From the NCBI RefSeq assembly GCF_003991155.1, contig NZ_CP031293.1: a stretch of DNA of 64,000 nucleotides. One strand, written 5' to 3'. A program made the position numbers. Shown in pieces: positions 39,101 to 54,100 of the stretch. How positions within the stretch are numbered: position 1 is the first letter of the stretch; every line of letters starts with the position of its first letter. The DNA comes from Escherichia coli (GTDB taxonomy: Bacteria; Pseudomonadota; Gammaproteobacteria; Enterobacterales; Enterobacteriaceae).

Positions 39101-42100
39101 GCAGGTGACGGTGTGGCAATAAAATCCTCTGCCGGATGGTTAATCGCATCCTGCAAGTTATGTTCGCCGCTATCGTTCAGCAGTTGCACCACGCGAATGG
39201 AGGAGTGCTCTGCAACAAATGTATTGAGGAAATCATCCCCGCTAAACAGCGCATGTTGGCGATCGGCAATCAGTAACACCGGTTTAATCTGGCTGGCGTA
39301 TGCGTTCATTTCACTACGCTGATGACTGAACAGCGCCAGTACCGGTGCAACGCCCAGTTTTAACAGCGCAAAAAAGGTAATATACAATTCAGCGACGTTA
39401 CCCAGTTGTACCAGTGCGGTTTCACCGGGTTTAATGCCCTGACGACGCAAGCTACAGGCGAGATTATCCGCCGCCTGATTCAGTTCCCGGTAACTCAACT
39501 GACGCTCGCCGTCGATGACCGCGATGCTGTCACTCGCAGCGTGGCGAGTCAGAATGTCGGTCAGTGGCAAATCCTGCCAGTAGCCTTTTTCCCGATAGCG
39601 ACGGGCAAACTCTTCCGGCCAGCGGGTGAATGGAATGCTCATCCTCGCTCCTTAATGCAATCCAAAAACGTTCAACATGGTAGAAAGTTTGACGCCTGTT
39701 TCGCGCCACTCACCCAACGGTGAGGACGCAGGCACAATCCCCGCTCCGGCAAACAGACGCACCTGATTTTCCCGCAGCTTCGCGCAGCGGATGGTCACCA
39801 CCCATTCGCCGTTACCTTCGCTGTCACACCAACCCACAATGCCGCCAAACAGTTCGCGGTCGAACGGCTCCAGTTCAGCAATAACCTGAGTCGCGGCCTG
39901 ATGCGGGAAACCGCTCAGCGCGGGGGTCGGATGCAGTAGACAGGCCAGAGTCAGTGCGTTTTCTTGCGAATTCGCTTTACCTTCAAAGGGAGTTGCGAGA
40001 TGCCACAGCGTCGGCGTGGTAATCAATTGTGGAGAGGAGGGAACGTGTAACTCACTACTGCGTTTGCGCAGTACCTCTTTCATCGCCTGAGTCACCAGTT
40101 CATGTTCATGGCGATCTTTTTCTGACGCCAGCAGACGATTACCCGCTTCGCGATCGAGCACTTCATCCGGCTGACGACGCGCGGAACCGGCTAACGGAAT
40201 GGAGCTAAAACGCTCGCCGTCTTTACGTAGCAGCAGTTCCGGGCTGGCCCCCAGCAGAACGCCACCATCAGCCAACGGAACATGGAAGTTGTAACTAACC
40301 GGGTTTTGCGCAATCAACCGTTCCAGCAATACGCCACTATCAATGGCGGCGTCAGTGGTGATATCAATCAACCGTGACAACACCACTTTGTCGACCTGCG
40401 GCGTGGCGGTAAGTGCGGCAGCACGGGCAACCATCTGTTCAAACGTGGCTTGTTCCGGAATGGCCTGACGTTCCACCACGTTCAGCGACTGGCTGCGGGT
40501 GAAACGGCGTGCGGAAGCTTGTTTTTCCTGACGGGAGAACGACTGCCAGGATTCGGGAATATACAGCGACGAAGGCTGACGTGGATCGAAGGGAATCGCC
40601 CCGACCATCACCGGATTTTTGATGCCCTGCGCTTTGGCATCGGCAAACAACGCGGCGAGTTTTTGCTGGAAGGGACTGTCGGGCGAATCCCCGTTCACAG
40701 CCGGTTCATCGAAGCGGGCGAAACATCCTGACGTCGTAAAACTGCGGTACGGCGACATAAAGAAAAAGCGATTGGGCGCAAGTGTTGCCATGGTCTGCTG
40801 TACTTCCTCAGCCAGTGACGTATCCATATCATCCTCCACAAAATGATAAAGGCTTTAATAATGATTATCATTTATATTTTCGGTCGCTAACCTAAAAGCA
40901 AACGCGCACTATGTCAACTCTTGAGGTAACGCAATCTGCAACTCGGGGTTGCATCTGTTTGTGGTTACAATGAAAATGAGAAGCATTAACTCTATTAATA
41001 ACAGGAAGCTAATTTGTGAGACTCGCCCCGCTCTACCGCAACGCCCTTCTATTAACAGGACTTTTGCTTTCAGGAATAGTCGCAGTTCAGGCCGCCGACT
41101 GGCCGCGTCAGATTACTGACAGCCGGGGCACTCATACCCTGGAAAGCCAGCCGCAGCGTATTGTTTCCACCAGCGTCACCCTGACTGGCTCACTGCTGGC
41201 GATTGATGCTCCGGTGATCGCCAGCGGCGCGACCACGCCAAATAACCGCGTCGCGGATGACCAGGGCTTTTTACGCCAGTGGAGCAAGGTGGCGAAAGAA
41301 CGCAAACTGCAACGGATCTATATCGGCGAACCGAGCGCCGAAGCCGTTGCCGCGCAAATGCCGGATCTGATTTTAATTAGCGCAACCGGCGGGGATTCGG
41401 CGCTGGCGCTGTACGATCAGCTTTCTACCATCGCCCCAACATTAATCATCAATTACGACGACAAAAGCTGGCAGTCGCTGTTAACGCAGCTTGGCGAAAT
41501 TACCGGGCATGAGAAACAAGCGGCAGAGCGGATTGCACAGTTTGATAAGCAACTGGCGGCGGCGAAAGAGCAAATCAAATTACCGCCGCAGCCGGTCACT
41601 GCCATTGTCTATACCGCCGCTGCACACAGTGCCAATCTCTGGACGCCGGAATCAGCACAAGGGCAGATGCTGGAACAACTCGGCTTTACGTTGGCGAAAT
41701 TGCCCGCAGGGTTAAACGCCAGCCAAAGCCAGGGCAAACGCCATGACATCATTCAGCTTGGTGGAGAAAATCTGGCTGCAGGGTTAAATGGCGATTCACT
41801 ATTCCTGTTCGCTGGTGATCAGAAAGATGCCGATGCGATTTATGCCAATCCACTGCTCGCGCACCTGCCTGCAGTACAAAACAAGCAGGTTTATGCGCTG
41901 GGAACCGAGACGTTCCGCCTGGATTACTACAGCGCCATGCAAGTGCTGGAACGACTTAAGGCGCTGTTTTAAGCATTAACTGTCGGACGCTGTCATCTGC
42001 GGCGGCGTCTGGCGAAAACGTCGCAACTCCACCAGCACCAGCAATAACAACACGCCGATAATCAACAAACCAAAACCGCTCGCGCTTGCGGAAGCAACCG

Positions 42101-51100: not shown

Positions 51101-54100
51101 TGGTTCGCAGGTCGATAATTTCTGGCAGTTCGAACGTCAGCGCATCATCGACCCACTGCCAGACTTCGCCGTTATCTTCCGTAAAACGCATCCGCAGCGT
51201 ATCTGCTTGCGCTAATCCGGCAACCACCGCGCGGGCCAGTAATGGCGCATCAACCTCTCCGGTTAACTCAACGTAATGCGCCACGCTCCAGGCGGAGGGT
51301 AAATCCGACAGTTTTTCTGCCATCCAGATGCCGGGCTGTGCGGCGACCAAAGGTAAATGCTGGCTCATTGTGCCTCCTGCAACTGGGTGAAATTCGCCGG
51401 TGTCAGAGTACGCCAGTGGACTTCCAGCCACTGCTGGCAGGACTCTTGTGACTGCGGCTGACACACAATGTCCCATCCTGCCGGTAAGAGGCATTGTTGC
51501 GGCCACAGACTGAATTGCCCCTGCGCATTGCGCAAAATGTAAAACGCTCCCTGCGGATCATCGAAGGGATTACTGAATGCCATATTCAACTCCTGTCATG
51601 GAAAAGTGGTTGCCAGAGGTCGATTAGCCCCTGCATCAAGCCACCGCGCCAACAAAGCGCATCATGTCCGCCGTCAACCTGACGCCAGAAAATGGATTCT
51701 TTTATGGGGTGTAATTGCGCATACAGCGCCTGATTGGCCTGCATGATCATCGGCTCGCGAATACCCGCTTCCAGCACAATGCGCAGACCTTCGGCACTAA
51801 CTTGACCAGCTTTAAGTTGCTCAAGTAAAACACCTTCTTGCGGCCCGCCCCGATGCGGCCACCAGTACGATCCTGACTGGCTTAATACACAGCCAAAGCG
51901 TTCAGGCCAGTGCAGTCCGGCATACAGCGCGGAAAGCCCACCAAAACTCTGCCCGGCGACCACGGTGCGATCGGCGCGATCGCTAAAAGAGGCAATAGCT
52001 TTCACCAGGGGTAATAACTCTTGCTGTACTGCCAGCCAGAAATCCGCATTACACGGCAGTTCGTGGGCGCGGTGCGTGGTGTCGATAGCATCGATCAACA
52101 CATACACGGCGGGAGGAAGTTGCCGACGATGGGTCAGCGAAGTTAGCGCAGGCCAGACGGGCATACTCTGCGCCCAAAATTCACCATCAAGCAAAACTGC
52201 CAGCGGGCGTTCTTCTGCTGTTGCATCGCCGGTGGTAAAAATCCATACACGGCGTGAATTTTTCAACCGTTCACTTTTCCAGATAATTTCTTTGGCAGGC
52301 GTTTCTGGCGCTTGCGGACAATCCCATCCCGGTTGCAGAGGCGCTTGCGGCATTTCAAGTGCAGAAACAGCGTGCCCTCGCCCGCCTTTCCAGCTTTGTG
52401 GATTCAGCGGATCTGCTATCGCCTGGGGTAATAGTTTTCGCCAGCCTTCACGTAATTCGAGGCGATCGGGGGATGGTGCAGAAAAAATGTCATCGCGTTC
52501 GGTGGGAATAAAGCAGTAGCTGCCGCGCCAGTTGGCATTGAGTTGTGTCGTCCACTGCCAGACGTTGGTGCCTGCAATTCGCTGCATCGACTGGGGCTGG
52601 CTGTTCTGATGGTGATCGGTCACACCAGTGATGTAGACCCATACGCGCTTTATCGTCGAGTATTCTTCAGAACCTTGGGGATCACGCCACCAGAAAGTGA
52701 CCTCAAACATTTCGTCATTCAGACGCTGCCATTCCGGGCCATGTTTCGACTGCCACCAGCTCTCACTTCCTACTTTTAACGCCGTCACACCATAACCCCA
52801 TGTTTACTGTGCAATTTTTTATTGATTGCAGAAATATATTGATAATATTATTGATAACTATTTGCATTTGCAATAGCGTAATGGCGCGCCGTGGGAAGCG
52901 CGGACATTAATTAACCAACTGCACTGCGTGTCTTTCAGGATCAAAGGTTTTCGCGGTAGCGGGGTGCGTCGTATTGATGACGACCATGCCCGACAGTTGC
53001 AATTCGTGGCAAAAATGCAGGAATAAAACAATGAACAAGAAGATTCATTCCCTGGCCTTGTTGGTCAATCTGGGGATTTATGGGGTAGCACAGGCACAAG
53101 AGCCGACCGATACTCCTGTTTCACATGACGATACCATTGTCGTTACCGCCGCTGAGCAGAACTTACAGGCGCCTGGCGTTTCGACCATCACCGCAGATGA
53201 AATCCGCAAAAACCCCGTTGCCCGCGATGTGTCGGAGATCATCCGTACCATGCCAGGCGTTAACCTGACCGGTAACTCCACCAGTGGTCAGCGTGGGAAT
53301 AACCGCCAGATTGATATTCGCGGCATGGGTCCGGAAAACACGCTGATTTTGATTGACGGCAAGCCGGTAAGCAGCCGTAACTCAGTGCGTCAGGGCTGGC
53401 GTGGCGAGCGCGATACCCGTGGTGATACTTCCTGGGTGCCACCTGAAATGATTGAACGTATTGAAGTTCTGCGTGGTCCGGCAGCTGCGCGTTATGGCAA
53501 CGGCGCGGCGGGCGGCGTGGTTAACATCATTACCAAAAAAGGCAGCGGTGAGTGGCACGGCTCCTGGGATGCTTATTTCAATGCGCCAGAACATAAAGAG
53601 GAAGGTGCCACCAAACGCACCAACTTCAGCCTGACCGGTCCGCTGGGCGACGAATTCAGCTTCCGCTTGTATGGCAACCTCGACAAAACCCAGGCTGACG
53701 CGTGGGATATCAACCAGGGCCATCAGTCCGCGCGTGCCGGAACGTATGCCACGACGTTACCAGCCGGGCGCGAAGGGGTAATTAACAAAGATATTAATGG
53801 CGTAGTGCGCTGGGACTTCGCGCCTCTGCAATCACTCGAACTGGAAGCGGGCTACAGCCGCCAGGGTAACCTGTATGCGGGCGACACCCAGAACACCAAC
53901 TCTGACTCCTATACCCGCTCGAAATATGGCGATGAAACCAACCGTCTGTATCGCCAGAACTACTCGCTGACATGGAACGGCGGCTGGGATAACGGCGTGA
54001 CCACCAGCAACTGGGTGCAGTACGAACACACCCGTAACTCGCGTATTCCGGAAGGTCTGGCGGGCGGTACCGAAGGGAAATTTAACGAAAAAGCGACACA

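Follow-up and report, generated by a model that had tools for sequence, protein, structure and literature searches.

Does the chromosome of an Escherichia coli isolate carry an enterobactin system that is complete and still under the control of Fur, or has this system been disrupted? We addressed this question for the ent/fep/fes locus in a stretch of 64,000 nucleotides from contig NZ_CP031293.1 (RefSeq assembly GCF_003991155.1), hereafter called the window. An original prediction, made from the sequence alone, had described the locus as expected core biology with nothing disrupted, with all genes for synthesis, export, and uptake of enterobactin present and uninterrupted, and with near-consensus Fur boxes at three divergent promoters. 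We are highly confident that the window is E. coli chromosome and that it harbors the canonical chromosomal system for enterobactin, organized in six Fur-controlled transcription units. As such, the locus is expected core biology and already known.

The cluster comprises 16 genes, bounded by the end of entH at 35999 and the end of entD at 55941, in the order entH, entA, entB, entE, entC; fepB; entS; fepD, fepG, fepC; fepE; entF; ybdZ; fes; fepA; entD (Table 1). Its extent had originally been given as 40857-52868, which takes in the outer Fur boxes but leaves out entCEBAH and fepA-entD. As regards gene content, the original prediction was right. Each of the 16 genes is precisely as long as its K-12 counterpart, lacks internal stop codons, and encodes a protein that aligns globally to that of K-12 without gaps; gene content and order are those of K-12. 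Combining annotation with NCBIfam and Pfam models, we found a complete biosynthesis set (entC, entB, entA, entE, entF, and entD, with the accessory genes entH and ybdZ); annotation and NCBIfam models likewise identified the export gene entS and all uptake and release genes, i.e. fepA, fepB, fepD, fepG, fepC, and fes. Start codons were normal, namely ATG, or GTG for fepB and fes as in K-12. Fourteen proteins scored above curated NCBIfam cut-offs, 13 with equivalog models and FepA with a FepA-family subfamily model; EntB and YbdZ passed Pfam domain models. Protein identity to K-12 was lowest for EntD (92.7%), FepE (93.4%), and YbdZ (94.4%) and ranged from 97.2 to 99.5% for the remaining proteins. 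The translations also contain the carrier and catalytic motifs: (i) HHLLVDG, GGHSL, and GYSLGG in EntF; (ii) GLDSV in EntB, the serine motif of its carrier protein; (iii) GIDIE and FSAKESAFK in EntD; (iv) GQSFGG in Fes; and (v) the Walker A, signature, and Walker B motifs in FepC.

To place the locus within the species, we used positions 35900-56000 (20.1 kb) as a megablast query against 5426 complete E. coli genomes. The query was matched in 5420 genomes, of which 5377, K-12 included, showed 95-99% DNA identity. In at least 15 genomes the identity was 100%, e.g. in NZ_CP029747.1 (2016C-3878), NZ_CP024826.1 (CREC-544), and NZ_AP017617.1 (MRY15-117); the isolates with an identical locus originated from humans, cattle, chickens, dogs, and water. 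The identity between NZ_CP029747.1 and the window extends without change over 34400-57500, and the PGAP/RefSeq annotation of this identical DNA lists all 16 genes as intact coding sequences, with zero pseudogene flags.

For the control regions, we relied on the DNase I footprints of Fur in K-12. In NC_000913.2 coordinates, they cover 611868-611915 (fepA-fes), 623939-623969 (fepB), 624054-624102 (entC), and 621394-621462 (fepD-entS; PMC2189734, Table 3). They were compiled by Chen et al. (2007) from Brickman (1990) for fepB-entC, Hunt (1994) for fepA-fes, and Lavrrar (2002) for fepDGC-entS (PMC2189734). The same source describes the fepB-entC region as having two distinct protected regions and the sites as clusters of overlapping sites at 6-bp spacing. 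We converted the footprints to NC_000913.3 by adding 777 bp and then mapped them to the window via pairwise alignments. With this offset, the spacing to the start codons agrees exactly with that listed in PMC2189734 (Table 4), i.e. -172/-149 for fepA-fes, -25/-86 for fepD-entS, and -36 for entC.

Four sites in the window correspond to these footprints (Table 1). The three Fur sequences flagged beforehand, at 40857-40875, 43299-43324, and 52838-52868, each lie inside a footprint equivalent, in DNA identical to K-12, and all three are real; the fourth site, the fepB box at 40972-40990, had been omitted. In the entC operator, the 19-mer at 40857-40875 (AATAATGATTATCATTTAT) matches the 19-bp Fur consensus at 15 of 19 positions and belongs to a run of four matches at 6-bp steps starting at 40845. 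The fepB operator has the core 19-mer GAAAATGAGAAGCATTAAC at 40972-40990 (15/19), a phased run of three members, and a -10-like hexamer, TACAAT, at 40966-40971. The shared fepD-entS operator is built around two overlapping 19-mers at 43300 (15/19) and 43306 (16/19), together spanning 43300-43324. For fes/fepA, the label near-consensus is an overstatement, as the best 19-mer reaches just 13/19 and a phased array is found instead. Here, overlapping sites at 52835, 52841, 52847, and 52853 match 12-13 of 19 positions at exact 6-bp steps (12/19 at 52841 and 52847), and the hexamers read GATAAT ATTATT GATAAC. The interval proposed for this box lies inside the operator, but the best match (52853-52871) extends 3 bp past its end.

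Simple sigma-70 scans placed promoter-like hexamers over the entC, fepD, and fepA Fur sites. The fepA leader of K-12 is 146 nt long (PMC11979758), and several small RNAs act on it in that strain; its length puts the putative fepA start site near 52885, directly downstream of the fes-fepA operator, which ends 5 bp upstream of it. Two single-base differences from K-12 were noted within the leader, at 52964 and 52973 (-67 and -58 from the ATG). In the K-12 Fur regulon, fepA-entD is among the Fur-regulated operons, and fes, fepDGC, entS, and entCEBAH are strongly repressed (PMC4676285).

Matches to the Fur consensus cluster in the three control regions to a degree well above random expectation. 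We scored all 19-mers of the 64 kb on both strands against the consensus GATAATGATAATCATTATC, and the four top 19-mers of the whole window, at 43306 (16/19) and at 43300, 40972, and 40857 (15/19 each), all fell into ent control regions. Dinucleotide-preserving shuffles of the window gave an expectation of 0.16 matches of at least 15/19, compared with the four observed. Shuffling each AT-rich intergenic region separately (31-42% GC) is the harder control; under these conditions, 0.05% of the entC-fepB shuffles, 0.1% of the entS-fepD shuffles, and 7% of the fes-fepA shuffles attained the observed maximum. Runs of four matches of at least 12/19 at exact 6-bp steps, as seen for entC and fes-fepA, occurred in none of 3000 local shuffles. 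Across the whole 64 kb, phased runs of at least three members were confined to 40845 (entC, four members), 40966 (fepB, three), and 52835 (fes/fepA, four). In the control regions, a 7-1-7 scan gave 13/14 at 40856-40870, the best match in the entC operator (TAATAATGATTATCA), and 11/14 each at 43305-43319 and 52852-52866.

Matches of 13-14/19 inside ybdN, cstA, fepE, and elsewhere were assigned to background, as chance alone would yield about eight matches of at least 13/19 over the 64 kb. The best Fur-like site of the window outside the ent locus lies within ybdN (30026-30050) and consists of two intragenic 14/19 19-mers 6 bp apart together with a 12/14 match in the 7-1-7 scan (TGATAATCATTTTTA). 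It may be a chance occurrence, given that about 1.2 matches of at least 14/19 are expected in 64 kb.

The pathway encoded by these genes is well established in K-12. EntC, EntB, and EntA convert chorismate into 2,3-dihydroxybenzoate (DHB), and the cyclic trimer of DHB-serine is assembled by EntE, EntB (through its aryl carrier domain), EntF, YbdZ, and EntD. EntD primes the carrier domains and EntH has a proofreading function. Enterobactin is exported by EntS, the ferric complex is imported by FepA, FepB, and FepDGC, and Fes hydrolyzes it to release the iron. FepE shares the location of the cluster but is dispensable for enterobactin. In the window, six transcription units would diverge from three control regions: entCEBAH/fepB, entS/fepDGC, and fes-ybdZ-entF-fepE/fepA-entD. 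When iron is plentiful, dimers of Fe2+-Fur would polymerize on the overlapping arrays of GATAAT-type hexamers that are predicted to cover or abut the promoters, and binding at the four operators (Table 1) would switch all six units off. Iron limitation would release all six, so that enterobactin could be made, exported, recaptured, and hydrolyzed. As far as can be judged from the DNA, there is no reason to expect behavior other than that of K-12. The value of the locus is mainly that of a negative control, i.e. an isolate whose core siderophore system is intact and equipped with textbook Fur operators.

Table 1 Features of the window, with coordinates, strand, and the basis of each assignment
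Feature	Position	Strand	Basis and details
entH, proofreading thioesterase, 137 amino acids (aa)	35999..36412	-	NF007607, 310 bits vs cutoff 237; 98.5% to K-12
entA, 2,3-dihydro-2,3-DHB dehydrogenase, 248 aa	36415..37161	-	NF006074, 441 vs cutoff 312; 98.8% to K-12
entB, isochorismatase/aryl carrier protein, 285 aa	37161..38018	-	Pfam Isochorismatase and PP-binding; 98.9% to K-12
entE, DHB-AMP ligase, 536 aa	38032..39642	-	NF008192, 1031 vs cutoff 783; 98.1% to K-12
entC, isochorismate synthase, 391 aa	39652..40827	-	NF011591, 863 vs cutoff 624; 99.5% to K-12
entC Fur operator (K-12 footprint equivalent)	40833-40881		Alignment to K-12, sequence identical
fepB Fur operator (K-12 footprint equivalent)	40966-40996		Alignment to K-12, identical up to 40988
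fepB signals: GTG start; Shine-Dalgarno AGGAAG	41003-41008 (Shine-Dalgarno)	+	Sequence
fepB, periplasmic ferric-enterobactin binding protein, 318 aa	41016..41972	+	NF008200, 518 vs cutoff 205; 98.7% to K-12
entS, enterobactin exporter, major facilitator superfamily, 416 aa	41976..43226	-	NF007792, 716 vs cutoff 324; 99.5% to K-12
Shared fepD-entS Fur operator (K-12 footprint equivalent)	43287-43355		Alignment; intergenic region 100% identical to K-12
fepD, ABC permease, 334 aa	43337..44341	+	NF007760, 626 vs cutoff 428; 99.1% to K-12
fepG, ABC permease, 330 aa	44338..45330	+	NF007759, 648 vs cutoff 422; 98.5% to K-12
fepC, ABC ATPase, 271 aa	45327..46142	+	NF007606, 613 vs cutoff 497; 98.9% to K-12
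fepE/wzz(fepE), O-antigen very-long-chain regulator, 377 aa	46139..47272	-	NF007699, 619 vs cutoff 300; 93.4% to K-12
entF, nonribosomal peptide synthetase with C-A-PCP-TE domains, 1293 aa	47487..51368	-	NF007605, 2810 vs cutoff 2400; 97.8% to K-12
ybdZ, MbtH-like partner of EntF, 72 aa	51365..51583	-	Pfam MbtH, 73.5 bits; 94.4% to K-12
fes, enterochelin esterase, 400 aa, GTG start	51586..52788	-	NF007758, 706 vs cutoff 222; 97.2% to K-12
Shared fes-fepA Fur operator (K-12 footprint equivalent)	52833-52880		Alignment, sequence identical to K-12
fepA 5' untranslated leader (putative start site)	52885..53030	+	146 nt by K-12 homology
fepA, TonB-dependent ferric-enterobactin receptor, 746 aa	53031..55271	+	NF010048, 1280 vs cutoff 493; 99.5% to K-12
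entD, phosphopantetheinyl transferase, 206 aa	55321..55941	+	NF007604, 420 vs cutoff 169; 92.7% to K-12
cspA-type thermoregulator	6793-7241	-	Rfam gathering-score hit, 136 bits, over cspE and its leader
rnk leader	20220-20328	+	Rfam gathering-score hit, 125 bits
STnc70 small RNA	24091-24184	-	Rfam gathering-score hit, 44 bits, between ahpC and dsbG
CTX-M beta-lactamase	26246-27121	-	290/291 identical to CTX-M-15; difference A80V (precursor)
IS1380-family (ISEcp1) transposase	27377-28639	-	Inside the inserted unit
hokE	56063-56215	-	Annotation
sok	56207-56362		Rfam hit

Several points weigh against a system that is intact and controlled as in K-12. The occupancy of the sites by Fur and the positions of the promoters are carried over from K-12, and for this strain we infer both the production of enterobactin and its iron-dependent repression. 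The genes for the accessory functions Fur, TonB-ExbBD, and TolC lie beyond the window. EntD, FepE, and YbdZ have diverged from K-12 by 5.6-7.3%, so that defects due to single residues are possible, although catalytic motifs are kept. Finally, the downstream edge of the fepB operator differs from K-12 from 40989 onward, where K-12 has a 186-bp insert: the last approximately 8 bp of the footprinted K-12 operator fall inside this K-12-only insert and are replaced by other sequence in the window. The fepB 19-mer consequently ends in AC in the window and in TT in K-12, with the same consensus score.

This last difference underlies the alternative that survives best, according to which Fur regulates an intact cluster, but the control of fepB departs from that in K-12, its leader lacking a 186-nt palindromic element. 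We regard this as a tentative possibility. The Fur box and the -10-like hexamer would then lie approximately 26-50 bp from the GTG, and a short, unstructured mRNA leader would replace a long hairpin. The spacer between entC and fepB indeed measures 188 bp in the window versus 374 bp in K-12, and a single 186-bp block accounts for the difference. In K-12, the block follows the Fur box of fepB and precedes the Shine-Dalgarno sequence, within the leader (window 40989-41002; K-12 locus L002:18539-18724), and constitutes an imperfect GC-rich palindrome with many GGGTGAGGG/CCCTCACCC motifs. The predicted folding energy is -98.8 kcal/mol for the K-12 leader (z = -5.2) versus -2 kcal/mol for the window's leader of about 50 nt, which is no better than that of shuffled sequences and suggests an unstructured leader. 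However, the Shine-Dalgarno sequence and the GTG start are the same in both leader forms, and any difference in expression between the two is hypothetical. Nor is the short form unusual. Among the complete genomes, the long K-12 form was found in 2720 (about 50%) and the short form in at least 2497 (at least 46%), the sum of 2335 genomes carrying the common junction and 162 carrying the junction variant of the window; two sampled genomes without the K-12 form also have a 188-bp entC-fepB spacer.

The short spacer was also considered as a deletion damaging the fepB operator. This was rejected, since the 19-mer still matches the consensus at 15 of 19 positions and the short form is so widespread. 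The short fepB leader is a normal allele, not a lesion. The K-12 block is more probably an insertion, because the short form is common and the block is a dispersed palindromic repeat. The family to which it belongs occupies a median of three places per genome, and an O157 strain has another copy located between alx and sstT. Searching the literature yielded no relevant account of a dimorphic fepB leader.

E. coli is thus split approximately half and half by the fepB leader. Somewhat more doubtful is a further step, namely that the hairpin influences the translation of fepB or the stability of its mRNA, such that FepB dosage differs. If true, the two halves of the species would differ in how the uptake of ferric enterobactin is set, and K-12, the basis of all known studies on fepB regulation, would stand for one of two states only. 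In any case, the leader dimorphism makes the regulatory architecture of K-12 one of two common natural forms.

Apart from the fepB leader, we considered whether the locus might be intact in appearance but impaired by missense changes, so that the strain fails to make or use enterobactin. The residues differing from K-12 leave some room for this (15 of 205 in EntD, 25 of 376 in FepE, 28 of 1292 in EntF, and 11 of 399 in Fes), but such divergence is normal between E. coli lineages, the great majority of which share 95-99% DNA identity with the locus. The proteins also score far above the curated equivalog cut-offs with the known catalytic and carrier motifs present, and the same 20-kb sequence recurs without any change in at least 15 independent isolates from diverse hosts and water. 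We therefore consider an impaired system very improbable, and an intact, Fur-controlled cluster remains the preferred interpretation. The weakest alternative, that the Fur boxes arose by chance from the AT-richness of the intergenic DNA, draws on the base composition of these regions and on the modest fes-fepA maximum, but its probability is negligible, as it is refuted by the shuffle statistics (for two of three regions, the observed maximum appeared in at most 0.1% of local dinucleotide shuffles) and by the footprint mapping, the sequences being identical to K-12 DNA protected by Fur.

Beyond the enterobactin locus, the window contains a chromosomal insertion. A 2847-bp ISEcp1-blaCTX-M transposition unit is located at 25979-28825, inside the LysR-type regulator gene citR (ybdO), and is flanked by a TAATAG duplication (25973-25978 and 28826-28831). 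The unit truncates citR/ybdO, and the remaining open reading frame spans 25233-26060. The beta-lactamase of the unit, CTX-M-15 with A80V, corresponds to the CTX-M-55 allele. The 5426 complete E. coli genomes contain no case of the junction of this insertion with citR. Clinically, the insertion is more important than the enterobactin finding. It also bears on the comparison with NZ_CP029747.1, whose colinearity with the window is lost left of ybdN. Colinearity over the whole window had been assumed and was rejected when the Rfam hit of the cspA type did not fit the gene map, which pointed to an extra segment of 2853 bp in the window. The remaining Rfam hits above gathering score are listed in Table 1.

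On the other side of the cluster, a hokE/sokE type I toxin-antitoxin locus follows directly after entD (55942-56400), where PGAP marks an overlapping frameshifted open reading frame. K-12 carries IS186B between entD and hokE; this element is absent in the window. The spacer between fepA and entD (55272-55320) is likewise shorter, with 49 bp compared with 174 bp in K-12, where approximately 125 bp of additional sequence resembling repetitive extragenic palindromic (REP) elements, with GCCGGATGCGGCG... motifs, are present.

Within the cluster itself, the correspondence with the best-known system is close. In K-12 MG1655, the cluster extends over b0583-b0597 (NC_000913.3, 609459-629713) in the order entD-fepA-fes-ybdZ-entF-fepE-fepCGD-entS-fepB-entCEBAH. 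The window has the same 16 genes in the same order and relative orientation, with the cluster as a whole running the opposite way, and the three divergent control regions are common to both strains. The entS-fepD (110 bp) and fes-fepA (242 bp) spacers are alike in length; the former is 100% identical, and the latter has three base differences, all outside the operator. The footprinted K-12 operators are represented in the window by the same DNA, with unchanged spacing to the start codons, except for the outer edge of the fepB operator.

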